40,867 nucleotides of DNA from Candidatus Asbonarchaeaceae archaeon (GCA_034190605.1 JAXINT010000063.1:1-40867), one strand, 5' to 3'. Shown: positions 4,660 through 36,050, counted from the stretch's first letter. The notes: a model not told the origin generated them from the sequence alone. A program made the numbers and translations.

Positions 4660-5118
4660 TTACGAGGTCATCGGCACCGACTTCAGGAAAGTGATGTTGT
4701 ACTGGTAGACCGATGCGTCCGAGTTCGGGTTGTGCTTCTCGTTCTTGTTCACCATGTAGCCTTCAATCGTCTTGTCGCCTTCGCTGCCGTCCTGCTGCGT
4801 GATAATCAAGCGTAGATGGTCTCCGGATTTATACATGGTGTCGAGCTTGTTCACCATCTCCTCGACCGAAGCGTAGTTGTTGAGGCCTTCAGCGATCTCG
4901 TCGTTGATCTTCGTCTTCAGCTTCCAGGTCTCCTTTATCTGGTTCAGGTTGAGAGCTCTTCTCTCAGGGTTGCCACCCTGCTGGTCAGGCTTCGCAAAGC
5001 TCGACAGCTTGTTCTGCTGGTCACGAGTGATCTCGCCGGATACACCCATCTCTATAACTTCTCCGGACGCAGGGTTCTTCAGTTCTACCGTTTTCGGGTG
5101 TGATTCTGGTTTGACCAT
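4660..5118 (-). CDS. Hypothetical tail protein (152 aa), distal-tail-protein position
   Basis: Complete ORF that starts 2 nt after the tape-measure stop. The call rests on position only. Confidence 0.55.
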   Translation of the reverse strand: MVKPESHPKTVELKNPASGEVIEMGVSGEITRDQQNKLSSFAKPDQQGGNPERRALNLNQIKETWKLKTKINDEIAEGLNNYASVEEMVNKLDTMYKSGDHLRLIITQQDGSEGDKTIEGYMVNKNEKHNPNSDASVYQYNITFLKSVPMTS

Positions 5119-11126: not shown

Positions 11127-11996
11127 TTAGTTCACTACGTGTCCGATGGCCTTCTCGTTGATTACACCGTGACCGAAACGCATGGTTCCGACGATCTGCC
11201 ATCTGTCGTAGTCCGGCTCTCGCTCGGTTTCGACAGTTGGTGATCTCTTGATGACGGTGTCGAAGGCGTGATCTGAGTCAAGCATGACAGCGACGACATC
11301 TCCAGACGTTGAGCTTGCTCCGTTAGCAGCTCTTGTCATGTAGACGGTCATTCCCAAGACTGATCCGAACTCTCCTGTGTCAGCGCCTTTCTCATCGCTG
11401 TAGTCGTTGTCGATGACCTTGTTATCGTTCAGGAGGTCGGCTTCAAAGTCTGGGTGCACAATCACTGCGTCCGGATCGTAGCCGTCTGAGTGCAGCTTCG
11501 CTCTGAGCTGGTTCAGGTCTGTGTACTGAACCTTTCCGTCAGTGGCGTTGTCCTGCGTGTTCACGTTGGTTAGTGCAGTGTTTGCTACGGTGTTGTAGGC
11601 TTCTTGGTCTTCCTTGTCAGCCAGGGCTACGCCCAGCTCAGTCTGGATTTCCTCAGCCTGCGTACCCATTCCGTCTTCCTCACCTTCCGTGGTGAGTGTG
11701 GTACGCTTACCGTACTTGGACACTGTGATGTCCGTTGTGGAGTGGCTGATGTCTTCACTGGTGATCTGAGTGTTCTCGGACTGGCTTGCTGCATCCAGAC
11801 TTCCTCTGGATCGGGCCTTGTAGGTGTCGGTCGGTGCGTCAGCGATGTTCACGACTTGGCGTGAAAGCTGCCGCATGACACGGTTCCTTCTGGCCTCTGT
11901 ATCGACCATGTCCGAAAGAACAGGGTCATCCCAGGCGTTGACATTTGCCTTGTCGACTGCCTTAGCTTCGTATGCCTGACTCTTTGCTTCAGACAT
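11127..11996 (-). CDS. Major capsid protein, HK97-fold by position and size (289 aa)
   Basis: Lies immediately after the protease/scaffold gene (ATGTCTGA overlap). GAGGTGAT SD sits 7 nt upstream. Size and gene order are typical for an MCP. Confidence 0.7.
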   Translation of the reverse strand: MSEAKSQAYEAKAVDKANVNAWDDPVLSDMVDTEARRNRVMRQLSRQVVNIADAPTDTYKARSRGSLDAASQSENTQITSEDISHSTTDITVSKYGKRTTLTTEGEEDGMGTQAEEIQTELGVALADKEDQEAYNTVANTALTNVNTQDNATDGKVQYTDLNQLRAKLHSDGYDPDAVIVHPDFEADLLNDNKVIDNDYSDEKGADTGEFGSVLGMTVYMTRAANGASSTSGDVVAVMLDSDHAFDTVIKRSPTVETEREPDYDRWQIVGTMRFGHGVINEKAIGHVVN

Positions 11997-13562: not shown

Positions 13563-14090
13563 CTAAAAACGGTTCCGCCAACCTTCAGTTCCGAGAACAG
13601 CGTCCTTGTAGTTCGCAGCGAGCTCCCGTGCAGCACGCTTTGACAAGTCCTCAGAATCCTCTAGGTCGGAAACCGCTTCAGAAAAACTGCCGCCGACCGA
13701 CTCCCAGAAATCAAGTAAATCCCTTCTACTCCAGTCTTCAGGCTTATTACCTGCGTTCTCGTTGCTGACTGCTGCCAGGGCGCTGCCTGTCGTGTTACCG
13801 CCTTTCTTCAAGGTGGTGTTTTTGAGGTCGGCTCCGCGGTAGACGGCGCTTCTACCTCCGAAACCTACGACATAAACAGTTTCACCGTCCGAGACCTCGA
13901 TCTTTTTGTCGTCGCCTTCCTGCGGAAAAGTAAACGAAGAGCCTTTCTGAGCGATAATCACTCCTGTTCCGGAAGGTGTGGCAACCACGTCTCCGCTGTC
14001 GAAGTCGCTGGTGCGAGCTCTCAACTCCTCGATGGATTCTATTATAGCCGAGCGAAGCTCCAGTTTAGCTTGTTTCACCATTTTCACCAT
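13563..14090 (-). CDS. Hypothetical head-morphogenesis-position protein (~175 aa)
   Basis: ORF between portal and protease. The start is uncertain (ATGs at 14090 or 14081, overlapping the portal end). The upstream part of the track ORF lies inside the portal gene. Confidence 0.55.
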   Translation of the reverse strand: MVKMVKQAKLELRSAIIESIEELRARTSDFDSGDVVATPSGTGVIIAQKGSSFTFPQEGDDKKIEVSDGETVYVVGFGGRSAVYRGADLKNTTLKKGGNTTGSALAAVSNENAGNKPEDWSRRDLLDFWESVGGSFSEAVSDLEDSEDLSKRAARELAANYKDAVLGTEGWRNRF

Positions 14091-15588
14091 TCGCCATAGC
14101 CTGTGCATCCGCCGCTTCTGCATCAGCAGCGGTGTCGCGGTTTATGGTTTCGTCGTCGATCAAGTTGTTCTTGCTGGAAGACAGGTCTGCCGCGATCTGC
14201 ATGTACTCTTCTTCGCTGACATCTCCCAAGTCTGGGCCTTCGTAGTCGTTGACTCCCATGTAGTCCTTGACAGCTTCTCTATCCCAGATTCCGAGCGCCA
14301 CCATGTTTCTGGCGACTTCGAGTTTACGCATGTCTCTGTCGGCTTTCCTGATCTCTCTTTTGATGTTCGGTGCCTCGAACTTGATCCGGCAGTTGAACTC
14401 CGGCTCGAACAGTTCGTCGTTGAGAAGGCTTTGCAGCTTGTCTTGAAGCCGTGAAATCCTTTTGAAGTATCCCTCGTGGGTCAGCGAGGATGTACGGGCT
14501 CCTGAATCGCCGCCTATCGGCATACCGATTCTTGTCGGTGGCACGCCCCACGCCATTACTATTACTTTTGTTATGTAGGTGGCGAGCTCTTGGAAGTCCA
14601 TGTCGCTCATGTCGTTTAGGTCTTCTATCTCCATTTCGCCGGTCAGGACGAGGTCTTGGTGCTTGTTCTTCAATTTGCGGAACTTTTTCAGCGTCTTCTT
14701 GACCAGTTTGTAGTTGGCGTCTTCCGGCCCTGCGTTCGGCATCTTCACGACCTTGTTGACGATACCTGCGTTCTCGAAGAATTGGCCGTTGTGATCCTTT
14801 GCCTCGGCCAGCATCGTCAACTCGGAGATAATAGACCTTGCAGGTGTGAATCCGTAAGTCTTCCCGTTCAGCCTCATGTAGTTCATGTGGATTACTTTGT
14901 CAGGCGGCAGATCGGCTTCCGCGGTTCCGACTTCCTGGTGGAAGTTGGTTATGTCGCCGTACTTGTTGATGTCGTGCTCTACAGTGGATGCAGGCACCAT
15001 CTGAAGTTTCCGTGTGGAGAAAAGGTCTTCGTCTCTTGCCCGTAGCTCTTCGACGACTTTGGAGGCCGCCAAGTCGGCGCTGGATCGAAAGTTGAAGTCA
15101 TGGTTTTCCCTGATCTTGTCTTTCAGGATTGACCTGGCTTCTGTTTCTCCTATCTTTCTTTTGTAGAGGTAGCCGTCTCCGACGATGAGAAGGTCGAGAA
15201 GGAAGTCGGCGACGCTTTCCTTGGCGCCGCTGTTCCAGAACTCTTTGCAGTCTCGGATACGTCTTTCGCCTGATGAATTGCCGAGGTACTTGAAGTTCGG
15301 GTCGTCGCCGCCTATGACGTCGTCGACTATCGCCTGCATAATGCTGAGTGCTTCAGGCGATTTTTTTATCAGGTTGAAAAGCATCTCTGTGTTGTAGCCG
15401 TCTGTTCCGCCTCTGGGTTCTTCCAGTCCTTCGACGTTTGCTGCGATACCTGTTTCATTGGCTAGAGGTTCGTTCTCTGTCTCTATTGCTTTGGCTTCCT
15501 CCGTGGAGCTTTTAGCTTCGGCAGAACTACCAGTTTCACCTGAAATTACAAGTCCGGCGGAGGAATCCCAGTTGGCGTCGTCAGGCAT
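14065..15588 (-). CDS. Portal protein (507 aa)
   Basis: Roughly 500-aa ORF directly after terL and before the protease. It has its own TATA box 24 nt upstream and an acidic C-terminal tail. Confidence 0.75.
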   Translation of the reverse strand: MPDDANWDSSAGLVISGETGSSAEAKSSTEEAKAIETENEPLANETGIAANVEGLEEPRGGTDGYNTEMLFNLIKKSPEALSIMQAIVDDVIGGDDPNFKYLGNSSGERRIRDCKEFWNSGAKESVADFLLDLLIVGDGYLYKRKIGETEARSILKDKIRENHDFNFRSSADLAASKVVEELRARDEDLFSTRKLQMVPASTVEHDINKYGDITNFHQEVGTAEADLPPDKVIHMNYMRLNGKTYGFTPARSIISELTMLAEAKDHNGQFFENAGIVNKVVKMPNAGPEDANYKLVKKTLKKFRKLKNKHQDLVLTGEMEIEDLNDMSDMDFQELATYITKVIVMAWGVPPTRIGMPIGGDSGARTSSLTHEGYFKRISRLQDKLQSLLNDELFEPEFNCRIKFEAPNIKREIRKADRDMRKLEVARNMVALGIWDREAVKDYMGVNDYEGPDLGDVSEEEYMQIAADLSSSKNNLIDDETINRDTAADAEAADAQAMANGENGETS

Positions 15589-15660: not shown

Positions 15661-17259
15661 CTAGGCTATTTCGACAATCCCTGTCTCTTTTTCGAGGTCT
15701 GAAAACTCTTCCTCGTCTTCGTTTAGATCGATTTCCTCGGCTTCTTCACTGATAAGTGACAAAGTACCCTGTACTCCTTCAGTGTCCTCGTAGGCGTGCC
15801 AGGCTATCGCCAAACTCATAACGATGTCGTCCTTATCCTTGCCTTCCAGCTTGCCGCTCTTCGACCTGTGGAAGTTCCTCATCTCCTCCATCAAGTCTTC
15901 GTCGTCGTGAAGCACAAGGTCGCCTCTGTCCAGCGCGGCCTGAAGCTGCGAAAGGATCGTCGGCCGTGTCTTCCTAGTAGTGTCGAACGCTTCTATACGG
16001 CCTGAAGTCTGTATCTGCTTGTCGATGGTCTTCCAGGTTCCGGTTCCTATAGCGTTTTTCTCGATGTAGCCGTAGTTGAAACGGTACTTCCTGTCGAGAG
16101 ACATGACTTTCTTCGCTATCTCGGCCGGGCCCATACCCTGCTTCCTGATCTTGTTCGAGTACCACGCCCTTTTATCAGGGTCGATACCGAGAACCGTGAA
16201 AACTGTGTAGTCAGCTTCTTTCTTGTCGCTCATAGCGATGTCGACGCCGAGATACCAGTTCCAATCGCTGTATTCTTCCTTGTTAGGGTTTGCTAGGTAG
16301 TGTGATTCGCCGATATTGGTGTCGAGGTTCGGCTGCACCATTTCTTCCTTGAAGAACCGTTCGTCGACGCTCATCGGGTTGCACATGTACTCGCGTGCGA
16401 ACCTGCTGCTTCCGATCTCGGCTTTTTTCGCCATCAAGCCGTCGTAATCCCATTTGAACGGCCACAGCGGTTCCTCTGTCTCAGGGTCGTAGGCCTGGAA
16501 ACGCCGCGTATAATAGTTGTCTTTCTCCATCAACTCCATCATCAGGTCGTCGTGTTTCTGCGGAGTTCCGACGATCTGAAGTGTTCCGCGGCTGTTCTCC
16601 GCAATCGGAGATATTACGTTGTAGAAAAGGTCTTTCTCCTGTTCTGTTGACTTGCTCCCGGCGGAGTCGTCGGTGAGGAGGTCGTCGCAGAAAACGTAGT
16701 CAACGTGCTTCGACCTGATGCTTGGCGAGAACGTCTTCGTCTTCACTCTGACATCGGTTGTTGTGTGGATGCTTTCGCGGGCCCAGACGGTCTCCGTGGA
16801 GTCGATGTCAAGCATTTCCTCGTTTTCGCTGACGTAGTCACTGTCCGGTTCTAAATGCTTCAGGACGTCGTTCCTGATGATGATACGCTTGATGTTCTCC
16901 AGAATATCAGTAGACTGGCCCTGAGAGGCGGCCACGATCAGTATTTCTTTGCTGGTCTCCTTGAAGCATCGCCAGAGCGTCTGCCCGACCGTAAGAGTGA
17001 ACGTCTTTGAGTGGCCTCTCGGCGCCATAAACGCGATTTTTGTAGCATTATTTTCCGGTTGCTCCGGCGGGTTCTGTATCACGTCGATAGCTTCCTGGAT
17101 CAACGGGCTGTCGACGTTGTAACCTAGAATGTGTTCTAGGAAGAACTCGTAGTTCTTCACCGCTAAGGCTTTGATGGTTTCTTTGTCGTCGATTCCGCAG
17201 CTTTCCTTGATCTCCTCCCATGTTCGTTCTTCGTCGAACTGCTGCGAGTCGGAGCCCAT
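15661..17259 (-). CDS. terL: Terminase large subunit (532 aa)
   Basis: Walker-A-like 'FMAPRGHSKT', Walker-B-like 'VDYVFCDDLLTDD', and a C-terminal RNaseH-like nuclease segment ('YLGVDIAMS..ADYTVF'). Lies upstream of the portal. Confidence 0.85.
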   Translation of the reverse strand: MGSDSQQFDEERTWEEIKESCGIDDKETIKALAVKNYEFFLEHILGYNVDSPLIQEAIDVIQNPPEQPENNATKIAFMAPRGHSKTFTLTVGQTLWRCFKETSKEILIVAASQGQSTDILENIKRIIIRNDVLKHLEPDSDYVSENEEMLDIDSTETVWARESIHTTTDVRVKTKTFSPSIRSKHVDYVFCDDLLTDDSAGSKSTEQEKDLFYNVISPIAENSRGTLQIVGTPQKHDDLMMELMEKDNYYTRRFQAYDPETEEPLWPFKWDYDGLMAKKAEIGSSRFAREYMCNPMSVDERFFKEEMVQPNLDTNIGESHYLANPNKEEYSDWNWYLGVDIAMSDKKEADYTVFTVLGIDPDKRAWYSNKIRKQGMGPAEIAKKVMSLDRKYRFNYGYIEKNAIGTGTWKTIDKQIQTSGRIEAFDTTRKTRPTILSQLQAALDRGDLVLHDDEDLMEEMRNFHRSKSGKLEGKDKDDIVMSLAIAWHAYEDTEGVQGTLSLISEEAEEIDLNEDEEEFSDLEKETGIVEIA

Positions 17260-25967: not shown

Positions 25968-26011
25968 GTTTATCTCCTTATGGACATATTCGTCTTTAAC
26001 CTTTTTATACC
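25968..26011 (-). promoter_or_regulatory. Class-2 promoter/leader cassette (copy d)
   Basis: Coding strand: GTCGATAGGTATAAAAAGGTTAAAGACGAATATGTCCATAAGGAGATAAAC-ATG. Here the leader carries an AAGGAG SD. Confidence 0.6.
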
Positions 26012-26056
26012 TATCGACATCTCCGTCCGGAAGACTTGAAGACGGAACCGTCCAAA

Positions 26057-26067
26057 GATATATAAGG
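26057..26067 (+). promoter_or_regulatory. Plus-strand TATA box (GATATATAAGG) of the divergent control region
   Basis: Lies 4 nt after GACGGAACCGTC (26041-26052). It would place a transcription start near 26088, about 325 nt upstream of the first plus-strand ATG (26414). Confidence 0.45.
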
Positions 26068-26089
26068 TCGTGACCGAAACACTACACTG

Positions 26090-26404
26090 TAAACGGTGCA
26101 GGAAACCTAGCGCGCCCTAGGCTCAATAGGTGCCGGAAATAGGCCGAGAACCGGCGGGCGCGACATGCAGGCTCGAAACGAGTCGTGCATGGGCAGACAC
26201 ATCGAACCACCTAGCACCGCGGATTGTGGGGGAGGGGAGTACCCTCTTCTCTCTGAGAAGACGGGTTCGAGAAGAGCTCTGCTCTTCGATACTCGAACCG
26301 GCGATCCCGACCTGGAGCTGGCACGACCTGCCGCTCCAGGCATCTACGTATGAAACCACAATCAAAACCCTCAGACAGCCGTTTAGGCGACTTCTCGCAA
26401 GAGA
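26090..26404 (+). ncRNA. GC-rich, hairpin-dense element: candidate ncRNA, long structured leader or replication origin
   Basis: Stems seen by eye: cgcgccc/gggcgcg (26111-26162); a 12-bp hairpin with one bulge (26164-26191); GAGGG/CCCTC (26232-26246); TCTTCTC/GAGAAGA (26245-26261); GGTTCGAG..AAGAGC-tct-GCTCTT..CTCGAACC (26264-26299); CCTGGAGC..GGCA-cgacc-TGCC..GCTCCAGG (26311-26340). ORFs here are Arg/Pro/Ser-rich and overlap on both strands. Confidence 0.4.
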
Positions 26405-26413
26405 GTGAAAACG

Positions 26414-26671
26414 ATGACGACAAAGATACCGATTCCGGTACCGCCGAAGAAAGCACAGGAAATAATTGAAGCTCTGGAGAACGGCGGCGCCGTGGAAATC
26501 GAGTTCGCACCTGAAGAAGTACGCGAACATGAAGACCTCCTGCGAGACATAGCCAAGCTACACCACCCTGAAAAATCTATTAGAGAAAGAGCTGAAGAGC
26601 TTCGAGACGAAGCTTATCAGGCCGAGCCTGACGACTTCAGCGACGAAATAGAGGTCGAAGAATATGACTGA
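26414..26671 (+). CDS. Hypothetical acidic protein (85 aa)
   Basis: The ATG at 26414 has GAGAGTGA 7 nt upstream; the track start is a GTG at 26405. It is the first gene of the plus-strand operon. Confidence 0.55.
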   Translation: MTTKIPIPVPPKKAQEIIEALENGGAVEIEFAPEEVREHEDLLRDIAKLHHPEKSIRERAEELRDEAYQAEPDDFSDEIEVEEYD

Positions 26672-26813
26672 CTGGTTCGTCGAAGCAGAGCTCTACGAAG
26701 AGGAAGAAAAAGCCGAAAAATTCAACAGCGTCTACTCTCGCGGCATAAACGACGAAGAAGAATTAGAGAAATTTCTTGAGGCGCTGGAAGAAGAGCTAAG
26801 GAAAACTCTATGA
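26664..26813 (+). CDS. Hypothetical small acidic protein (49 aa)
   Basis: ATGACTGA overlap with the upstream gene and ATGA overlap with the downstream gene. Product is MTDWFVEAELYEEEEKAEKFNSVYSRGINDEEELEKFLEALEEELRKTL. Confidence 0.45.
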   Translation: MTDWFVEAELYEEEEKAEKFNSVYSRGINDEEELEKFLEALEEELRKTL

Positions 26814-27088
26814 TTAAAGTGACTGAAGACCACTGGGAGCTCGCCAGAGGCCAGGACGGCATCAAAGAAACACAGGAAGAAGGTCTCTTCGTACTGGAAG
26901 GCGTACAGAAGCTCCGCGCCAAGAAAGCCGAGTGTTGGTACATCGACCTCAGAAATGACACCTTCAACTTCTACGGCTACACGGCGGACGGCGATCCTGT
27001 AGAGCCGCCGATAACTCCAAAACCTGTTAAAGAGCTCAAGTCGCATATCCGAGCCGATGGAAGCAGCGACCTCAACCAGTTCGTGTAA
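26810..27088 (+). CDS. Hypothetical protein (92 aa)
   Basis: Complete ATG ORF, coupled to its neighbours. Confidence 0.55.
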   Translation: MIKVTEDHWELARGQDGIKETQEEGLFVLEGVQKLRAKKAECWYIDLRNDTFNFYGYTADGDPVEPPITPKPVKELKSHIRADGSSDLNQFV

Positions 27089-27092
27089 ACTA

Positions 27093-27263
27093 TGGAAGAC
27101 AGAGAGCTCGTCTACGTACCGCTTCTACTCGAACCTGAAGACTACGAAGCGCTTAAAAGCCAGTTAGACGGCGAGACAGGAGAGAAGGAGATAACTGTGA
27201 ACCTGCCGTTTGAAGGAGTCGAGAAATTGAAGAGACGGTTCAGAGGTGATAGCGGTGCCTAGA
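27093..27263 (+). CDS. Hypothetical small protein (56 aa)
   Basis: The ATG lies 4 nt after the previous stop. Product is MEDRELVYVPLLLEPEDYEALKSQLDGETGEKEITVNLPFEGVEKLKRRFRGDSGA. Confidence 0.4.
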
Positions 27264-27392
27264 GAGGAGTGCGGCGGCCTGTACTGTAATGGTAAACTAC
27301 AGAAAACTCAGACTCTTTCCGGAGACGTCGAATGGGTCTGCGGAAAATGCGGGAAAAGATACGATAGTCACGGGGCGAGAATAAATGGCTAG
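27246..27392 (+). CDS. Mini zinc-ribbon protein (48 aa)
   Basis: GTG start. 'ECGGLYCNGKL...WVCGKCGKRY' is a four-Cys ribbon. It overlaps both neighbouring genes. Confidence 0.4.
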   Translation: MIAVPREECGGLYCNGKLQKTQTLSGDVEWVCGKCGKRYDSHGARING

Positions 27393-27996
27393 TTTCTCAG
27401 TAAGCCAGAAAACCAGGGAGAAGCACGAACCTGAAGTCGTGCAGAAAGGCTCTGGAACCGACTTCGAGGACATCGACTTCGTCCAGAAGCTAGCTGACGC
27501 TATAGGTGTGCTACGCAGCGAGGCCGAAGAACAAGTTAGGAAAGTAAAGGACGAATACCAAGGCCTAGTCACACTGGATTCCTCTGCCGCCATACTTGCA
27601 GCACGGAACCATGGTGAAGAAATACTCGACGACCCAGAAATGGATACCGAGCTGGAGATCGCGAACGTGGTTCCGGGTATGAGCAGCATCGACATCCGAG
27701 CCACAGTCGTCAAGATAATGAGCGAGAATACGTTTGACGGCGGCCGAGTCCGGAGCTGCGACATAGAAGACTCGTCAGGGAAGACGCAGCTCACGTTCTG
27801 GAATGAAGACTGCGACGCTTTAGATCATTTAAGCCGCGGAGACAATATCAAGGTTGTCAACGCATACACGAAAGAAGAAGTGTCGGACTGGCAGCAGAAG
27901 CATTATGATAGTATTCCTGCAATCCAGCTCGGCGATGATGCGAAAGTTATCGCTATGAAGGAAGGAGAAGAAGTAGAGGTTGTTGAGGCGGAGTAG
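27385..27996 (+). CDS. RPA-like OB-fold single-stranded DNA-binding protein (203 aa)
   Basis: 'IDIRATVVKIMSENTFDGGRVRSCDIEDSSGKTQLTFWNEDCDALDHLSRGDNIKVVNAYTKE' matches the archaeal RPA OB-fold pattern (..DetG.i.ltlW.e.a..l..Gd.v.i.na..). Confidence 0.65.
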   Translation: MASFSVSQKTREKHEPEVVQKGSGTDFEDIDFVQKLADAIGVLRSEAEEQVRKVKDEYQGLVTLDSSAAILAARNHGEEILDDPEMDTELEIANVVPGMSSIDIRATVVKIMSENTFDGGRVRSCDIEDSSGKTQLTFWNEDCDALDHLSRGDNIKVVNAYTKEEVSDWQQKHYDSIPAIQLGDDAKVIAMKEGEEVEVVEAE

Positions 27997-28209
27997 TTAC
28001 TCTATCCATTCGACGTCGTCTTCGCCGGTCTCAGGCTTTTCTTCGACATCTTCGCCCTCTTCCAGAGGTTTTTCTTCCTCCGGCAGCTCTGTGATTCTGA
28101 TGTCTCGCGCTAGTTCTTCGCTGACGCCGCGGCTCCGCAAAACCTGTTTAGAGATTTCTGCCTGACCGTTCTCTTTGATGCGGCGCAGTGCTTCAGCCCA
28201 GAGATTCAT
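27997..28209 (-). CDS. Hypothetical small acidic protein (70 aa)
   Basis: Complete ORF. Its stop codon directly abuts the stop of the convergent RPA gene. Confidence 0.5.
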   Translation of the reverse strand: MNLWAEALRRIKENGQAEISKQVLRSRGVSEELARDIRITELPEEEKPLEEGEDVEEKPETGEDDVEWIE

Positions 28210-28477
28210 TGTCCTCCGCCTGTTCTAAAGCGGTCGTGTTAGTCTCGATTTCCTTCACAAACGCTTTCAGCACGTTTCTCACGGTGCCTTCTTTGACTCT
28301 AACCTTGTCCTCGATTCCTTTCACGAGCTGGTCATACATGACGTCGTCTTCCTTCAGTGCTTCGATTCCTGATGCGAGGTCTCTGTACGCTAGGTACTTC
28401 TGCACCATTTTCGAGTTCAGGATTTCTTCGAGCTGGTCTTCGTCGAGGTCTTCAAGATTCGTCGGCATTTTCGTCAC
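28193..28477 (-). CDS. Hypothetical protein (94 aa)
   Basis: Complete ORF coupled to its neighbours. Confidence 0.5.
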   Translation of the reverse strand: MTKMPTNLEDLDEDQLEEILNSKMVQKYLAYRDLASGIEALKEDDVMYDQLVKGIEDKVRVKEGTVRNVLKAFVKEIETNTTALEQAEDNESLG

Positions 28478-28994
28478 CTCCGAAGTATTTCTGGACGCCG
28501 TCGAGAACGCCTTCCATGCTCTGAGTGGCTTTCGGCATTTCGATGTCGCGGTTGGATGCGACTATTTTCTGAACCATCGGCCACAGGTCTTGAAGGTCTT
28601 TTTTAAGGTCTTCAAGGTCGTCTTCGAGGTTCTCTTTCTTGCTCTGGTATTGCTGGACTTCGACGTAGTCGGTGATGGCGCCTTCAGGGAGGCTGTTCAC
28701 GAGACCTGGTTTGAAGTCGTCGATGACTTCTGTGCTGTCTTGTTCTTGGCTCTGGTCTAGTACGTGCATAAGTTCCATTTCTCCGTCGTAGCCTTCGAGC
28801 CTGTCCTGTATCTCGCTGTTGAGGTTCGAGGCTTGGTTAATCATCTGGCGGTATTTGTGCACTTTCTGCTCGAACATCTGGACAAAGCCTTTCTCGGAGA
28901 CTTCTTCTTCGTGGCTTGTGGAGATTTTGACTTGTCCGTCTTCACGGTTGATCTTGCGGTCTGCGATAGAACTCTGGTAATCGTCTTCAGGCAT
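28452..28994 (-). CDS. Hypothetical acidic protein (180 aa)
   Basis: Complete ATG ORF and first gene after class-2 cassette copy h. Confidence 0.6.
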   Translation of the reverse strand: MPEDDYQSSIADRKINREDGQVKISTSHEEEVSEKGFVQMFEQKVHKYRQMINQASNLNSEIQDRLEGYDGEMELMHVLDQSQEQDSTEVIDDFKPGLVNSLPEGAITDYVEVQQYQSKKENLEDDLEDLKKDLQDLWPMVQKIVASNRDIEMPKATQSMEGVLDGVQKYFGGDENADES

Positions 28995-30021: not shown

Positions 30022-30332
30022 ATCTCCAGGGCGAGCTCTACCTCTGTGTAAGCATCCGTGTCGTAGTTTCCGGTGTCGTAGATGTGCTGGCTCTGCTTCT
30101 CGACGAAGCCGAGCTCTTCAAGGCCTTCGAGTACACGCCTAGCGTAGCTTTCCGCTACTCCGTTCCACGGCTCTAGTATATCCTGTCCAGTTTCCTGAGC
30201 TATCTCTCTAGGCGAAGTATGAATCCGTGTTTCAAGTATAGCGTCTCCGACCTCTTCATGGTAGCTGTTCAGGAAGCCGTAGGTTCGTTCGTCGTCGTGC
30301 TTCATGTCGAGAACTTCTATAGCTGTCTTCAT
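30018..30332 (-). CDS. Hypothetical protein (104 aa), possible winged helix
   Basis: Complete ORF coupled on both sides. 'SYARRVLEGLEELGFVEKQ' looks like a wHTH. Confidence 0.5.
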   Translation of the reverse strand: MKTAIEVLDMKHDDERTYGFLNSYHEEVGDAILETRIHTSPREIAQETGQDILEPWNGVAESYARRVLEGLEELGFVEKQSQHIYDTGNYDTDAYTEVELALEM

Positions 30333-31414
30333 GCTCTCTCACCGTCACCCTCCAGCATTTTGGAGATGTCGTCGCTTGAAAGGTCGGATTCACCTTCTAT
30401 CGGATACATGACGCGGTTGGTCTGCCAGCTTCGGATGTCGCCATCCTCGACTTCCATGTCTACGATCCAGCCTCCGGCCTTCGGTTTGATTCCTTTACGT
30501 TCTAGGAAAGGTGTCGGGCCTTGCCATGCTCCGGCGTAGAGCACCTGGCTTCCCTCCGTCTCGGCGTTCAAGAATTGGTGGAGGTGCCCGAAGACAGTGA
30601 TGTCGGCTTTCTGCTCGTCTGGTTTGTCTCGCAGCCACGTCTGGGCTCGATAGCCTAGTGTATATGGTGCGCCTCCTGATGGATGAACTAAATCCATGTC
30701 GACTTCGCCGAGGTCGATGTTGGCGTAGGAGTCTCCCAGGAAATGCAGGTCGTCTCTTTCGGCGTCTAGCTGCTCTCCGAATCTTATTCCTGTGTTTTTG
30801 AAGAGCTGGTGGTCGTGGTTTCCTTCGATGAACAGGGTGTCGATGCCGTCTCGCTCCGGATAGTTTTCTACCACGTAGTTCTTGAGGCGATCCCAGCCGA
30901 TTGCTTCTGGCTGTAAATGGTTGCTGTGGCCTCTGTAGACGCCTCTACCGTTATTTTTGACTGTTCCGTCGCTGATGTCTCCTGCGTGGAAGACTACGTC
31001 TATGTCTTCGTCCTCAAGTCTGTCGTAGAAATCGTTAAGCGAGTCAAGCTGCTCTCCTGTGGAGCCGAGGTGTGTATCTGATATTACTGCGAAGTTGTAG
31101 TGGCCGTCTTCGTTGACCCAGCGCCAAGTGTCGTCGACCTCGTCCTCGATTTGATACATTTTCGTGCCGTATTGGTCAACTGTTTTCTCGGAGATGTCTC
31201 TTCCGGTGGCGCGGAGCTCTTCTACCACTGATCTGGCTTTGTCGCGGCTCCAGTCGTATTCTTCGGAGAAATCGTCATACGTCATTCCAGATTTTAGGTC
31301 ATCTACAAGTCCGTCTGGTATTTCATCGTCAGGCATAGAGTGGTGCCCTAGAAAAAGGTTTCGACGGGCTGCACTTAAAAGGTCAGGCATGTTCGTTTTG
31401 ACGCTTGTGTTCAA
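30329..31414 (-). CDS. Calcineurin-like metallophosphoesterase resembling the PolD small subunit (DP1) / B-subunit family (361 aa)
   Basis: Phosphoesterase motifs 'VISDTHLGS', 'HAGDISDGT..GRGVY', 'IEGNHD', 'VFGHLH'. The C-terminal 'YAGAWQGPTPFLERKGIKPKAGGWIVDME' matches the DP1 pattern 'N.gtWQ.qT.FQk..ni.P.P..v.vvd'. The start may lie at an internal Met. Confidence 0.55.
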   Translation of the reverse strand: MNTSVKTNMPDLLSAARRNLFLGHHSMPDDEIPDGLVDDLKSGMTYDDFSEEYDWSRDKARSVVEELRATGRDISEKTVDQYGTKMYQIEDEVDDTWRWVNEDGHYNFAVISDTHLGSTGEQLDSLNDFYDRLEDEDIDVVFHAGDISDGTVKNNGRGVYRGHSNHLQPEAIGWDRLKNYVVENYPERDGIDTLFIEGNHDHQLFKNTGIRFGEQLDAERDDLHFLGDSYANIDLGEVDMDLVHPSGGAPYTLGYRAQTWLRDKPDEQKADITVFGHLHQFLNAETEGSQVLYAGAWQGPTPFLERKGIKPKAGGWIVDMEVEDGDIRSWQTNRVMYPIEGESDLSSDDISKMLEGDGERA

Positions 31415-32126
31415 CCCACCGATGTCTCAGCCTGTTGTAAACCTCTGTCTTGTTCTCTCCACCGGTTTCCTGTCTGACACTGTTTTCGTCGGCTCTGAGA
31501 CCCTGGTGCTCGACTTCTGCGTCTTCGACGTGTTTGATGTCGTAGCCTGCTGAGTCGGCTCTCCATCCGAACTCGGCGCCTTCTCCCACCTGGTGCCGCT
31601 GGTCGAACAACGGGTGTAGGCCGCCGAGCTTGAAGAACAGTTTACGCGGTATGGATATGTTGGCCGTCCACATCAGTCTGGGTGTGTCTGTTGCGGCGTG
31701 TACTGGGTGTCGGTCGCCTTTTTCACCGGTTTCCGGGTCTATGAACTGTATAGGGCCGAACATCGGTTTGCTTGGCTCGAAGGCGTTCCAGTATGCTTCT
31801 AGCCAGCCTTTTTCGGGTATGCAGTCGTCGTCGAGGAAGATTAATTGGTCGTAGTGGCTGGCTCCTGCGGCGACGTTCCGCAGCATGGAGGGTCGGAAGT
31901 GTTTGTGAGGTATATGGATGACTTCGAGGTTCGATATGGCGAATTCAGGTAGTTCGTAGCCTGAGCCGTCGACTACTACGAAGACCTCGAACTTGTCTCC
32001 GATTCCTGCTCGGCCTGCTTCCTCGATGACTTTGTTGAGGGTTTCTTTCACCATTTCTTCTCTGTTGCGGGTCGGTATTACGACTGTGACGCCGCGTTCT
32101 CCGGATGCGAACGGTTCCTCAGTCAT
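31383..32126 (-). CDS. Family-2 glycosyltransferase (247 aa)
   Basis: 'TVVIPTRNREEMVKETLNKV', 'VVVDGSG' and 'RPSMLRNVAAGASHYDQLIFLDDDCIP' (DxD) are classic GT2 signatures. Confidence 0.7.
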   Translation of the reverse strand: MTEEPFASGERGVTVVIPTRNREEMVKETLNKVIEEAGRAGIGDKFEVFVVVDGSGYELPEFAISNLEVIHIPHKHFRPSMLRNVAAGASHYDQLIFLDDDCIPEKGWLEAYWNAFEPSKPMFGPIQFIDPETGEKGDRHPVHAATDTPRLMWTANISIPRKLFFKLGGLHPLFDQRHQVGEGAEFGWRADSAGYDIKHVEDAEVEHQGLRADENSVRQETGGENKTEVYNRLRHRWVEHKRQNEHA

Positions 32127-33166
32127 ATATAACCCATTTCCTCAAGTTTCTGTTTTATTTCTTCTTCGTCGCCTCTGACTTGGCTGTCTGGCCGTTCTTC
32201 TCCGATCCAATCGTCGTCAAAGCCTAGTTGGCAGCTAATTTGAAAAGCTACGTCCTGAGTCTTGAGTTTTTGTCTCTTTGGCTCTACAGTTAGTGAGTCA
32301 GGGGCAAAGCTGGATATGAAAACTCCTTTGCGGTCGTGCCGTTTCTCGTGCATCTGAAACCCGTGGTCGGAGACAATAATCCAGTGCTCGGGCTTTAAGT
32401 TCTCTATAAGGTATCTGCATGTCTCACCCATTTCCTTGTAGATTTCCCGTGTGTACGGGCCTTCAGGTTGTAGGCCTTCGACGTGTCCGGCTTTGTCGAC
32501 TCCGTGAGTTCCGAACCATGCTACGTCAGGGCTTTCTTTCCGCGCCATAGCTGTGAACTGGCCGCATTTATCCTGTTCTATCTCGCAGGCTCTTTCGATT
32601 ACTTCTTGTATTTCTTCTTCAGTCATGTTCTGGCCCCAGGGTGCGAGGCTGCGGATGTCGTCTCTCGGAAGCTCGTCTTTTATCTGGATTATGTTTCTAG
32701 GTATTTCGGCGAACTTCTTCACTGACTCGGTTCTATGATTGGCGTGAGGGCCGACATGGTAGGTCTCTGAAGTGCCAAGTGGTGAAGGGAACCCGCTTAT
32801 TGACCACCCGTTTCCGATCTGAGGAGCTGGATACGTAACTGGCATAGAATAGATTGCTTGCCGTAGCCCTTCCTCGTCGATCTTCTCGAAGATTGTCTTC
32901 TTCTGGATGTTCGAGTAGTCGAGATGCTCTTTTTTCCAGCCGTGAGAGGTTATACCGTGTTCTTCCGGCATGACGCCTGTGTACATGCTGCTCCATTCGA
33001 CGCCTGTATGTGGTGTTCCGTGTTCGTCGATGCTGTGCAGCGTCTCTTTGTAGGCTTCTCCGTTTTCGATTTGTTGGAAGAGCCAGTTCCAGGTGTCATA
33101 GTCTTCGAGGTATTGGTCGAAGAACTCGCTGGAGAAGGCGTCAATACCGATTACTAGCAACTTCAT
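32123..33166 (-). CDS. Alkaline-phosphatase-superfamily enzyme (type I phosphodiesterase / nucleotide pyrophosphatase-like, 347 aa)
   Basis: 'MKLLVIGIDAFSSEF', 'GTPHTGVEWSSMYTGVMPEEHGI' (nucleophile Thr region) and 'IIVSDHGF' match the PF01663-type pattern as I remember it. Confidence 0.6.
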   Translation of the reverse strand: MKLLVIGIDAFSSEFFDQYLEDYDTWNWLFQQIENGEAYKETLHSIDEHGTPHTGVEWSSMYTGVMPEEHGITSHGWKKEHLDYSNIQKKTIFEKIDEEGLRQAIYSMPVTYPAPQIGNGWSISGFPSPLGTSETYHVGPHANHRTESVKKFAEIPRNIIQIKDELPRDDIRSLAPWGQNMTEEEIQEVIERACEIEQDKCGQFTAMARKESPDVAWFGTHGVDKAGHVEGLQPEGPYTREIYKEMGETCRYLIENLKPEHWIIVSDHGFQMHEKRHDRKGVFISSFAPDSLTVEPKRQKLKTQDVAFQISCQLGFDDDWIGEERPDSQVRGDEEEIKQKLEEMGYI

Positions 33167-33724: not shown

Positions 33725-34072
33725 TCAGTAACCCAGCTTCTTCCTTTGTGGATCGACCTCGCAGTGGCACTCCTTGCAGAGAACTACTAGGTCGCATCCC
33801 GCCTCGAAATCCTCTAAATTGGCGTAGAAGGCCTGCCAGCCACCGAGTTTTCTTTTAGGGTCTCCGCCGCCGTTTTCGTGGTGCAGCTCTAGCTCGTTCC
33901 ACCGTTTTATTTCCAGGCAGCGCTCACACCACAAAAGTTTATCGAGAAGAAGTCCGTGAAGCCTCGGCAACCTGTCAGTGTTACTTCGTAATACTCTGTA
34001 GAGCAGCCATTTTCTCCTGTCTTCGTAGTACGGTATCGTGCTCGGCTGCGTCATGGTTTGTGCCTCTGACAT
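33725..34072 (-). CDS. HNH endonuclease (115 aa)
   Basis: 'CERCLEIKRWNELELHHENGGG...VVLCKECHCEV' shows a CxxC...HH..N...CxxCH HNH/zinc architecture. Confidence 0.75.
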   Translation of the reverse strand: MSEAQTMTQPSTIPYYEDRRKWLLYRVLRSNTDRLPRLHGLLLDKLLWCERCLEIKRWNELELHHENGGGDPKRKLGGWQAFYANLEDFEAGCDLVVLCKECHCEVDPQRKKLGY

Positions 34073-34077
34073 GTGGA

Positions 34078-34261
34078 TGCGCCCGCCAGGATTTGAACCT
34101 GGGTCTCCAACGCTTCTCGGCTACCGGCGCTTTTTTATCGCGCTACGGCTCGCCTGTACGACCCCGCCGAGGCAACACCGCGTGCCTAGGAGCTTTCGCC
34201 CCCCATTACCTCGATTGTCGATGGATCTGCGTAGCGTCGTTGGCCGCTGGACTACGGGCGC
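34078..34261 (-). tRNA. tRNA-like gene carrying about 100 nt of extra sequence (putative intron(s)); anticodon unresolved
   Basis: On the minus strand: a perfect 7-bp acceptor stem GCGCCCG (34261-34255) / CGGGCGC (34085-34079); UA; a D-arm GUC-CAGCGGCCAAC-GAC; a T-arm CCAGG-UUCAAAU-CCUGG (34102-34086); discriminator A. A 6-bp helix GCUACG/CGUAGC encloses 82 nt where the anticodon arm should be, and 40 nt separate it from the T-arm. I could not find a canonical U33 loop or a bulge-helix-bulge motif. Confidence 0.5.
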
Positions 34262-34435
34262 AAGAGTATGTAACGGGGTACCACGCCTCTCGGCTGCACT
34301 CCCCGTGGCGTTTTACGAGGATGCCAAGCTCGCTCATCGAAGGCCCGACCGCCTGTCGTTCCCGGCTGGGTCTGCGGTACGGTCGTTTAACCCGTTTCGA
34401 GTACCTTCGATAGAGAGATAGAAGCGAGAGGAGGG
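34262..34435 (-). ncRNA. GC-rich structured segment upstream of the tRNA-like gene (leader or separate small RNA)
   Basis: No plausible ORF. Stems seen by eye: TCGAAGG..CCTTCGA (long range), GGTACTCG..CGAcCGTACC, ACGGGG..CCCCGT, CGCC..GGCG. GC content is clearly above that of the flanking genes. Confidence 0.35.
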
Positions 34436-35056
34436 TTACTCCTCTGCCTCTGGGTCTTCCTCAAGGTTGACGACCTTGGCGACAGTCGAATACTCATCTT
34501 TCTCAGGATTGTCGCGGTTACTGTTCCTGACTTCGTACTCGATTCTCATGCCGACCAAGTTCTCCCTGAGATAGTTGGCGAAGTCCTTGTTCTGCTGCTC
34601 GTTACTGTCTTCAGGGTCAACAGGGCTGACTTCTTCGCCGTGCCGATCTTTCAGGACGACGTCTGTGTCGCCTGAAGGCTCGGCCAGACCTAGCTTCTTC
34701 AAGGTGTCGTACAGCTTCGAGTTGCTGTACTCGCTTGAAGCACCTCTCGTGATCTTCGCAGTGAGGAAGAAAGGCAGCTCGATCTTGTCTGTCGGTACGT
34801 CTTCATCTCTGCGTTCGTTCTCTTCTTCCAAGTATTCCTGTAGAGCTTCCTTGTCTTCGTCGCTGATGTCTAGGTCGTCGATCTCTGATCGGACGTCAAT
34901 CCTGATCTGCTCTTTCTTGCCGTCACCCTGGTACTCATCGACTTCGCGGACTTCTCCGACGTTAGCGATGGTTCCTTTGTGTCGGCTTTCGTGGCCTAGA
35001 TCGACTCTGATGGGTTCTTGGTTGTCGAATCCAATTTGAACCATGTAGTTGTTCAC
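34436..35056 (-). CDS. Hypothetical acidic protein (206 aa)
   Basis: Complete ATG ORF downstream of the zinc-ribbon and TFB-like genes. I recognise no motif. Confidence 0.6.
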   Translation of the reverse strand: MNNYMVQIGFDNQEPIRVDLGHESRHKGTIANVGEVREVDEYQGDGKKEQIRIDVRSEIDDLDISDEDKEALQEYLEEENERRDEDVPTDKIELPFFLTAKITRGASSEYSNSKLYDTLKKLGLAEPSGDTDVVLKDRHGEEVSPVDPEDSNEQQNKDFANYLRENLVGMRIEYEVRNSNRDNPEKDEYSTVAKVVNLEEDPEAEE

Positions 35057-35061
35057 CTCCG

Positions 35062-35382
35062 TTAGTTAGACACGCTGAACGGCTTTCTGCCAGAGTTGGC
35101 TTGTTCGCCGCTTTCGGTGCCGTCTTCTGATTTTGAAAAAGAGTATTCTACTATAGTATCGTTTTCTAGGTTGTCTTTGTCCTTCATTTCGTGGAGCTGG
35201 AGTTCGTCGCAGTTATCGCACCAAGTGAAGCATAGGTCTTGAACCTTCTTCGGTGTGAATATGACGTTTTCAGGGTTGTTCTCCATCGAGTCTATCAGTG
35301 ATTCGACGTCGATGGCTCTGCCGCACTGTGGGCATACCATGGCTTTGTCGCCGTAGTTTTGTCGTAGTCCGTCTAACTTCAT
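35062..35382 (-). CDS. Zinc-ribbon protein (106 aa)
   Basis: 'CPQCGRAIDV...CFTWCDNCDEL'. ATGA-type overlap with the TFB-like gene upstream. Confidence 0.6.
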   Translation of the reverse strand: MKLDGLRQNYGDKAMVCPQCGRAIDVESLIDSMENNPENVIFTPKKVQDLCFTWCDNCDELQLHEMKDKDNLENDTIVEYSFSKSEDGTESGEQANSGRKPFSVSN

Positions 35383-36050
35383 TCTCTCCCTCTTAAGACC
35401 TGATTTGTGTCAGTCATAAACTCTTTTCCAAGTAGTTGCTCAAAGTCTTCGATGTTATCTCTAATTACCACTGGAGTAGTCCCGATAGAATTAGCCACTT
35501 CTTTTTGAGTGCGCACATGCCTGATCGCAGAATTATGCTCCTGTCCGGCATAAATAGATGCTAGATACACTATTGCAGCTGCCCTGCCGGAATTTGGTCT
35601 TGCATGCTCCGGAGTTTCTCCGGACTCAATCAGTTTGGCGAGAGATTTTGCCTTCCTTTCCACTTTGGGAGGTGTTGTGTAGGGATAAAGTGTGTCTAGG
35701 CACCTTGTAACCCACGGATTCAGACCGATTTCAGTGTAATTTATCTCTTCTTTCTCTATAGAACGGAATATCTTTTTGGCGGTTCTGTTGGTAGTTTGAG
35801 GCGCCACACGAAATATTTCGGCGATTTCCGACGGCTTCACAGGGTGGTTTAAGTTCTTAATAACTAAAAGTAGGCTGCCGGATGCTAAAGCTTCTATGCC
35901 GTCGTTTTTCGACACTTCCGCTTCGTCTATCAGCTCCTCTGTTTTCTCTACCACGAAATCAAAATCGGCGTTGTCGCTTTTTTCCACGTATTTTTCTACT
36001 ATGGTTCCGGATATGCAGTTTTTTATGATTCTCTGTGTTCTCATCCTCAT
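35379..36050 (-). CDS. tfb: TFB (TFIIB)-like transcription factor core with two cyclin-fold repeats and no N-terminal zinc ribbon (223 aa)
   Basis: Repeat 1: 'ALASGSLLLVIKNLNHPVKPSEIAEIFRVAPQTTNRTAKKIF'. Repeat 2: 'NPWVTRCLDTL...SGRAAAIVYLASIYAGQ...RTQKEVANSIGTTPVVIRDNIEDF'. These match the TFB core pattern (..P.dyv.Rf...L...sGrsP..vAAAaiYiAs.....TQkevA.vagVTevTiRnryke). Confidence 0.65.
   Translation of the reverse strand: MRMRTQRIIKNCISGTIVEKYVEKSDNADFDFVVEKTEELIDEAEVSKNDGIEALASGSLLLVIKNLNHPVKPSEIAEIFRVAPQTTNRTAKKIFRSIEKEEINYTEIGLNPWVTRCLDTLYPYTTPPKVERKAKSLAKLIESGETPEHARPNSGRAAAIVYLASIYAGQEHNSAIRHVRTQKEVANSIGTTPVVIRDNIEDFEQLLGKEFMTDTNQVLRGRE

Follow-up and report, generated by a model that had tools for sequence, protein, structure and literature searches.

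In Haloferax, tRNA-like t-elements are cut by RNase P and tRNase Z, and in Haloferax volcanii one of them lies upstream of the 5S rRNA, as summarised in a passage of PMC4326828 that cites Holzle 2008 and 2012. In plant mitochondria, t-elements fix the ends of mRNAs (PMC1920247). Such elements have a non-canonical cloverleaf with an acceptor stem and a T-arm (GGTTCRANYCC), lie inside longer transcripts, do not decode, and have an adjacent gene that starts a few nucleotides from the element end. We analysed a contig of 40,867 nt assigned to a Candidatus Asbonarchaeaceae archaeon (GCA_034190605.1 JAXINT010000063.1:1-40867; hereafter the window), in which an earlier note had marked a 184-nt tRNA-like element at 34078-34261. 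The results showed that this locus is real, derived from tRNA-Gly, non-decoding, and very probably not a tRNA spliced at bulge-helix-bulge (BHB) motifs. It shares with the described t-elements the features given above as well as the haloarchaeal setting, and differs from them in being viral and clearly tRNA-Gly-derived, in keeping a D-arm and a variable loop, and in carrying a 128-nt insert, known t-elements being tRNA-sized or smaller; its cleavage is a prediction made here. We tentatively favour, with less than even confidence, the reading that it is a viral t-element, a non-decoding tRNA-like signal derived from tRNA-Gly at which RNase P and tRNase Z would cleave a polycistronic transcript.

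To define the element, we numbered the RNA from its 5' end (r1 = 34261, minus strand), so that it runs from 34261 to 34078. Every tRNA-like feature listed in the earlier note was found in this interval on the minus strand. The 5' strand of the acceptor stem, GCGCCCG (34255-34261, r1-7), pairs perfectly (7/7) with CGGGCGC (34085-34079, r177-183), which is followed by the discriminator A at 34078 (3' strand with discriminator, 34078-34085); no CCA is encoded after the discriminator. The T-arm, CCAGG-UUCAAAU-CCUGG (34086-34102), pairs at all five positions (5/5), and both parts of a canonical tRNA end, an acceptor stem with discriminator and a T-arm of the GTTCRANYC type with the loop UUCAAAU, were present. 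In an unconstrained fold, the acceptor stem and T-arm were retained with pair probabilities of 0.95-1.0, apart from the outermost T-stem pair (0.5). The D-arm, GUCC-AGCGGCCAA-CGAC (34236-34252), has the GG in its loop, and its description as textbook was slightly generous, as the stem consists of three Watson-Crick pairs and a C.C mismatch at 13:22. A variable-loop-like GAGAC (34103-34107), whose last base corresponds to C48, precedes the T-arm; its counterpart in the related contig L001 is UGAC, as in archaeal tRNA-Gly.

Between the D-arm and the variable loop, a 128-nt insert (34108-34235; 62% G+C vs 51% for the genome) replaces the anticodon arm and holds no anticodon loop. A helix formed by GCUACG (r27-32) and CGUAGC (r115-120) encloses exactly 82 nt, as had been described. 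Both hairpins assigned to this region were also present, namely the GNRA-tetraloop hairpin GGGGC-GAAA-GCUCC (34189-34202) within the insert and GCGC-GAUAAAAAA-GCGC, the core of a longer hairpin C (GCCG-UA-GCGC-GAUAAAAAA-GCGC-CGGU, 34123-34149). The supposed near-duplicate of the 5' end, GCGCCGGUAG, does occur at 34130-34121, and is better read as the 3' strand of hairpin C, which is common to the window and L001. The absence of an anticodon loop was borne out: nowhere in the element is there a contiguous 5-bp stem with a 7-nt loop bearing U33, and a sequence scan of the window element found no loop heptamer of the form Y-U-NCC-R-N. The closest contiguous candidate, GCGCG-AUAAAAA-AGCGC, pairs at 4/5 positions and is in fact a 4-bp stem that closes a loop of 9 nt. 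Because some 130 nt of unrelated sequence stand in place of the anticodon arm, the element cannot decode.

To trace its origin, we searched representative genomes for its 3' end, GGTTCRAATCCNGGCGGGCGCA, which was carried at at least 120 loci. ARAGORN called tRNA-Gly at at least 66 of them (UCC, at least 57; CCC, at least 5; GCC, at least 4), the majority of the roughly 110 tRNAs listed. Among the matches listed, the non-Gly calls were mostly bacterial, and archaeal tRNAs with this 3' end were overwhelmingly tRNA-Gly. The first 18 nt at the 5' end and the xGAC form of the variable loop likewise agree with archaeal tRNA-Gly, e.g. that of Nanoarchaeum. On the sequence match of these three parts, the element is a tRNA-Gly derivative. 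General detectors passed it over: ARAGORN in default mode called no tRNA across the whole window, and Rfam at gathering thresholds gave no match in the window. The covariance-model check suggested in the earlier note came out negative, since the Rfam tRNA model in sensitive mode scored 27.8 bits in a search of 551 nt (E = 0.0011), short of the gathering threshold of 29. This match covers an internal 53 nt, in which an internal copy of the 5' end is paired with the 3' end and the upstream part is skipped. A weak match to Rfam mascRNA (18.1 bits) was also obtained.

To assess conservation, we compared contigs L001-L005, using the 206-aa protein encoded upstream of the element, which has four homologues in public assemblies; protein searches placed such homologues at just five loci. 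L001, whose homologue is 94% identical, carries an element of 167 nt that shares the acceptor stem and T-arm of the window element while its middle differs, and L002 is identical to L001 across the element. L003, with a homologue of 78% identity, carries two elements in tandem on the plus strand. The first, L003a (4735-4879), is 145 nt long and has a different acceptor stem, GCGGUGG; the second, L003b (5007-5106), is 100 nt long and has the GCGCCCG acceptor stem, a hairpin insertion in the D-loop, and a short hairpin replacing the anticodon arm. L003a and L003b lie 127 nt apart. L003b passes the Rfam tRNA threshold (30.1 bits) through its acceptor stem and T-arm alone. Three related virus loci (the window, L001 and L003) thus contain four elements in one common slot, which lies between the SSB-like (single-stranded DNA-binding protein-like) gene and the HNH-like gene. 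In L004 there is no element and an HNH-like open reading frame (ORF) directly follows the upstream gene, no element was found in the roughly 250 nt downstream of this gene in L005, and contigs L134-L137, matched by protein search, contained none. Further members were found neither in IMG/VR, searched by protein and by DNA pattern, nor among GenBank phages and PLSDB searched by blastn, and the Joint Genome Institute (JGI) metagenomes yielded only unrelated bacterial-type tRNAs.

All four elements have perfect acceptor stems (7/7) and T-stems (5/5). When their top halves were aligned, 95.3% of the cells were paired and seven pairs were changed on both sides, a result reached by 0/500 shuffles; among the changes, a T-stem pair is A-U in one and C-G in the other of the window and L003b, which is compensatory. 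An anticodon loop is missing from all four, and damage is limited to the anticodon arm, apart from the one D-loop hairpin of L003b. On this alignment, selection appears to act on the tRNA parts read by RNase P, tRNase Z and the CCA-adding enzyme, and not on the decoding part.

The middle of the element behaves differently. Between the window and L001, the flanking genes share 92% and 84% nucleotide identity and the 3'-terminal 78 nt of the element 83%, with an identical run of 33 nt made up of the last 28 nt of the element (BLAST and alignment) and the 5-nt trailer UCCAC (read by eye). Despite these similar flanks and 3' ends, the 5' 110 nt and the spacer gave no alignment, which indicates that the middle of the element is exchanged, not merely mutated. 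Since an HNH-like ORF flanks this hypervariable slot, homing-type recombination could explain the exchange. Hairpin C lies in the shared 78-nt block and reads GCCG-UA-GC[G/A]C, an A-rich loop of 9-10 nt, and G[C/U]GC-CGGU, with one compensatory change of G-C to A-U; two sequences lend its conservation thin support. The inserts of L001 (z = -3.75) and L003a (z = -3.49) fold far better than chance, with 0/200 shuffles as stable and the minimum free energy (MFE) structure equal to the centroid, and both form an 8-9-bp closing helix at the position of the anticodon stem together with two or three hairpins. The middle of L003b shows no unusual stability (z = +0.9). The inserts are richer in G+C (55-62%) than the genomes (50-52%), and GAAA-tetraloop hairpins occur in those of the window and L001. 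No copies of the inserts were found elsewhere in the window or the related loci, no Rfam family matched them, and by sequence they are non-homologous across the four elements.

Multi-intron tRNA-Gly genes with introns of 20-100 nt occur in DPANN and Asgard archaea (L009, L012, L024, L045, L089 and L093), and the earlier note had raised the possibility that the element is a multi-intron tRNA. In this reading it would be a multi-intron or otherwise disrupted pre-tRNA spliced by host endonuclease and ligase into a decoding tRNA-Gly. The GGTTCRAATCCNGGCGGGCGCA scan supplied DPANN and Asgard tRNA-Gly genes with 1-3 introns and an overall length of 93-174 nt as positive controls; they resemble the element in the sequences of acceptor, T-arm and variable loop, and are likewise interrupted over a long stretch, at the anticodon arm or D-loop. 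We coded the BHB geometry as an outer helix, a 4-bp helix and two 3-nt bulges on opposite strands, with the cut after the second bulge nucleotide, which reproduced the canonical 37/38 introns of the controls. One BHB-like motif, where none had been placed before, was found in the window element: CGC-UACG-[CAG]-AUCC...GGGU-CGUA-[CAG]-GCG (r26-39 / r98-111; 34223-34236 and 34151-34164), with helices of 3, 4 and 4 bp and two CAG bulges bounding 73 nt (34155-34227). This motif is of chance quality. A BHB this strong or stronger arose in 17-30% of dinucleotide shuffles, the BHB-constrained fold was 6.7 kcal/mol worse than the MFE, and the motif is missing in the close relative L001; excision of the 73-nt segment yields no tRNA, leaving a 9-nt loop without U33 about 40 nt ahead of the T-arm. 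A breadth-first splicing search to depth 3 with strict and relaxed BHB introns, scored against a cloverleaf of 25, reached 19/25 for the window and 20/25 for L001 on the best BHB paths, with no cloverleaf in either. The same search produced a perfect cloverleaf (25/25) for L093 and L045 and the correct tRNA-Gly for L009, L012 and L024; as it recovered the canonical tRNA in 5/8 real genes (missing L089, L106 and L110), its negative outcome is strong, not absolute.

A brute-force assembly of three exons gave an arm that would bear anticodon GCC (CGGUG-UUGCCAG-CGUUG), and was rejected because its junctions lack a BHB and NCC arms appeared in 41% of shuffled controls. A contiguous Y-U-NCC-R-N heptamer was present in 20/20 genomic intron-bearing archaeal tRNA-Gly genes, mostly as CUUCCAA, and was absent from the window element. 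ARAGORN in intron mode does call a tRNA here, Phe(aaa), with a 98-nt intron, on one occasion and Ser(aga), with A33 and an intron of 110 nt, on the other, and we rejected these calls because they are mutually inconsistent. Real intron-bearing genes keep a CUUCCAA-type loop and mostly have BHB junctions leading to a perfect cloverleaf, whereas the window element has neither. On the splicing search, the heptamer scan, the three-exon shuffles and the inconsistent ARAGORN calls, the multi-intron reading is not supported, and we consider it very improbable.

The viral t-element is proposed because haloarchaea and plant mitochondria use t-elements and because the context of the locus suits processing. 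The element has a non-canonical cloverleaf with acceptor stem and T-arm, it is co-oriented with the flanking genes, and no TATA-like box was found at -25 to -30. Upstream, on the same strand, are a non-coding spacer of 174 nt (34262-34435; 59% G+C) and the SSB-like ORF (34436-35056; 206 aa, acidic, with a conserved C-terminal acidic tail). Downstream, also on the minus strand, is the HNH-like ORF (33725-34072), whose first ATG lies 5 nt past the discriminator and whose second ATG, at 34054, has a GAGG about 9 nt upstream. An ATG-initiated ORF begins 5-7 nt past the discriminator in three of the four elements (window, 34072; L001, 1088; L003b, 5113).

In the proposed mechanism, the element would be transcribed within a minus-strand polycistronic unit, with no promoter of its own. 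Host RNase P would cut at G1 (34261) and tRNase Z after A73 (34078), both enzymes recognising the retained top half, which consists of the 7-bp acceptor stem with the discriminator A, the T-arm, and the elbow formed by D-loop and T-loop. These cuts would part the upstream SSB-like message from the one that follows, give the downstream ORF a leader of 5 nt, or of 23 nt if the second ATG is used, and release a stable, tRNA-shaped RNA of 184 nt that would probably be CCA-tailed. We infer transcription, the RNase P and tRNase Z cleavages, and any role of the insert from the anatomy and setting of the locus; the element may also scaffold a variable structured RNA. If the proposal holds, archaeal viruses recruit the tRNA-end machinery of the host to punctuate polycistronic transcripts and to make short-leader mRNAs. 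Short-leader mRNAs are well translated in halophilic archaea. To our knowledge, punctuation by tRNA-end processing is documented for haloarchaeal rRNA and organelles, and not for archaeal viruses. Such loci are missed by tRNA finders or, in intron mode, are given contradictory tRNAs (Phe, Ser, Ala), and calls of a viral tRNA with a long intron therefore need a check of the anticodon loop.

Several observations weigh against the t-element reading. Neither of the more distant relatives has the element (L004, and L005 over the roughly 250 nt covered), which makes it dispensable, and the known family comprises four elements from three loci, of which L003a may derive from a different tRNA and would then inflate the count of covarying pairs. 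The short-leader argument is weakened because the downstream gene may start at the ATG at 34054. A 7-bp helix, UCCAGCG/CGUUGGA, rivals the D-stem pairing in the window, and the window insert is no more stable than its shuffles (z = -0.25). A pure processing signal has no need of a GC-rich insert of 128 nt, and the structured inserts of L001 and L003a hint at a function beyond punctuation.

Because the t-element reading leaves these large and, in two cases, strongly structured inserts unexplained, we keep as its main, non-exclusive rival a tRNA-scaffolded functional non-coding RNA, in which the top half would give stable CCA-tailed ends and the fast-evolving insert would be the active part, as a decoy, a protein sponge or a regulator. 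This is possible, if on the whole unlikely. MALAT1 mascRNA, the tRNA-miRNA (microRNA) RNAs of MHV68 (a murine herpesvirus) and engineered tRNA scaffolds all owe their stability and their processing by RNase P and tRNase Z to a tRNA top half that does not decode, and engineered scaffolds carry their cargo at the anticodon stem; these systems are eukaryotic, herpesviral or artificial, whereas the window element is archaeal-viral, and we know of no natural insertion of cargo at the anticodon position in an archaeal virus. The GC enrichment of the inserts, the folding of those of L001 and L003a, the GAAA hairpins of the window and L001, and hairpin C with its compensatory change are all consistent with a scaffold, and the swapping of inserts between viruses whose flanking genes are 84-92% identical resembles a cassette under diversifying pressure. 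Set against this, the window insert has chance-level stability, L003b is nearly free of insert, no motif is common to all inserts, none of them matches an Rfam family, and the complementarity of the insert to the viral genome did not exceed chance, with no target or partner found. A broader form of this idea, that tailed viruses of halophilic archaea encode a family of tRNA-scaffolded RNAs whose variable domain acts as a host-factor decoy or regulator, is decidedly doubtful; if true, the engineered tRNA scaffold would have a counterpart in nature, and tRNA-like effector RNAs an analogue in archaeal viruses. Virus-host RNA interactions could in any case be approached through these variable, structured inserts.

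The element could instead be a decaying or rearranged pseudo-tRNA, in which a host tRNA-Gly, possibly intron-bearing, was captured, then wrecked in a hotspot beside a homing-type HNH gene, and is now functionless. We regard this as unlikely and, all the same, as a serious rival. Pseudo-tRNAs are frequent in haloviruses (PMC13532342). The slot is a hotspot: L004 has no element, the window and L001 have one each and L003 has two, while L001 also holds an additional ORF there. In the window element, the D-stem contains the C.C mismatch, a proper anticodon stem is lacking and the insert is unstructured, and the tRNA-5'-end-like repeats GCGCCCGUAG, GAGCCGUAG and GCGCCGGUAG resemble recombination scars. 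However, lesions never hit the acceptor stems and T-stems, which are perfect in all four elements, the T-stem change between the window and L003b is compensatory, and no relative has a decoding tRNA in the slot. The 33 identical 3' positions of the window and L001 also contrast with a neighbouring identity of about 88%, at which such a run is expected with a frequency of 0.88^33, or about 0.015. The earlier suggestion of a scaffold or of a decayed or rearranged tRNA fits the data in either form; since the top half is intact in 4/4 elements and the damage is limited to the anticodon region, the comparison favours a maintained non-decoding element over random decay. The least probable of the readings is that the locus is an attP site, a tRNA-like DNA site at which a viral integrase recombines with a host tRNA-Gly gene, as in halovirus HF2. 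In haloviruses, tRNA-like genes just under tRNA thresholds are attP sites (PMC8707807), with an Infernal score of 28.2 there and 27.8 bits here, and the direct 5'-end repeats could be recombination cores. The HF2 element (HrrHF2_450; PMC8707807) is tRNA-sized or truncated, adjoins an integrase and matches the 3' ends of host tRNAs, whereas the scan of 43 window ORFs against Pfam, NCBIfam and PHROGs brought up no integrase, and both tRNA ends are present here with a large insert between them, instead of a truncated 3' portion. A search of JGI metagenome contigs turned up no archaeal tRNA-Gly gene that shares the 23-nt 3' end exactly, L003 has two different elements in tandem, and the locus lies among co-oriented genes and is syntenic in the relatives. 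The missing integrase, the presence of both tRNA ends and the lack of such a JGI archaeal tRNA make an attP site unlikely.

Other RNA classes were tried as candidates and rejected. As in transfer-messenger RNA (tmRNA), a tRNA-like domain of acceptor stem and T-arm is combined with a large insertion replacing the anticodon arm, and the window element differs in lacking the G3:U70 pair, a conserved tag ORF and the pseudoknot architecture. ARAGORN and Rfam gave no tmRNA match in the window, the Rfam tmRNA fragment match in L003a covers the T-arm only (17.7 bits vs a threshold of 47), and ORFs resembling a tag were 14-19 codons long, a chance length. Trans-translation, as far as we know, has not been described in Archaea. 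Read by eye, the C/D-box or K-turn motifs CUGA and UGAUGA occur in L001 and are not kept in the window, and the hammerhead-like CUGAUGA with GAAA is found in L001 alone. A permuted or split tRNA was considered because hairpin C resembles an acceptor stem closed by an A-rich linker, and there is no second T-arm. A miniature inverted-repeat transposable element or other repeat was rejected, as no further copy of the insert exists in the window or the related loci.

The window is a tailed virus, and its genomic setting points to a halophilic archaeal host, which suits the t-element reading. It encodes an HK97-type capsid protein (11127-11996), a portal (14065-15588) and a large terminase (15661-17259), and the sole relative of the capsid protein among GenBank phages is in the haloarchaeal HGTV-1. 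The proteome is acidic (median isoelectric point 4.7), and the element and nearly all genes are on the minus strand. The product of an ORF at 35379-36050 (minus strand) resembles the cyclin repeats of archaeal TFB/TFIIB (NCBIfam, E = 6e-8) and could be a viral TFB-like regulator. Scans against Pfam, NCBIfam and PHROGs of 43 ORFs across the 40.9-kb window found no member of the integrase, RNA ligase or splicing endonuclease families.

Among the immediate neighbours of the element, the 206-aa upstream protein had no match in Pfam, PDB or NCBIfam. Its AlphaFold model has a pLDDT of 60, and the best structural matches in PDB are SSB or OB-fold proteins (PrgE, DUF2815 and the phage Enc34 SSB), with E of at least 0.015; with a model of such low confidence and matches this weak, there is no support for this protein as an RNA-binding partner. 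The HNH-like ORF contains a CxxC...HH...CxxH motif and itself has no Pfam match, and its L003 homologue matches Pfam HNH at E = 0.003. The spacer at 34262-34435 folds to -62.7 kcal/mol (z = -1.3) and could be a remnant second element like L003a or a part of the same non-coding RNA. L001 lacks this spacer, its element beginning about 27 nt past the upstream stop codon. A T-rich tract, with which the upstream gene ends, adjoins the 5' ends of the L001 and L003a elements, which also suits processing from a longer transcript.

A number of further features were observed around the locus and elsewhere in the window. The plus-strand ORFs at 1088-1396 in L001, which starts 6-7 nt after the element, and at 5113-5337 in L003, placed likewise, have no counterpart in the window; one encodes 102 aa, and the other, about 74 aa with two hydrophobic segments, was not called as a gene. 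Two overlapping ORFs (127 and 117 aa) at 34038-34421 on the plus strand, antisense to the element and spacer, are almost certainly artefacts of the GC-rich structure. At 30329-33166 (minus strand) there is a block encoding an AlkP-type phosphodiesterase, a family-2 glycosyltransferase and a calcineurin-like metallophosphoesterase, an unusual set for a replication-proximal module; the phosphodiesterase and metallophosphoesterase also occur in L001, and all three in L003. Around 26000-28800, the AT skew reverses and ORFs lie on the plus strand of an otherwise minus-strand genome, and an ORF at 27385-27996 on the plus strand shows a weak OB-fold (tRNA_anti-codon) match.

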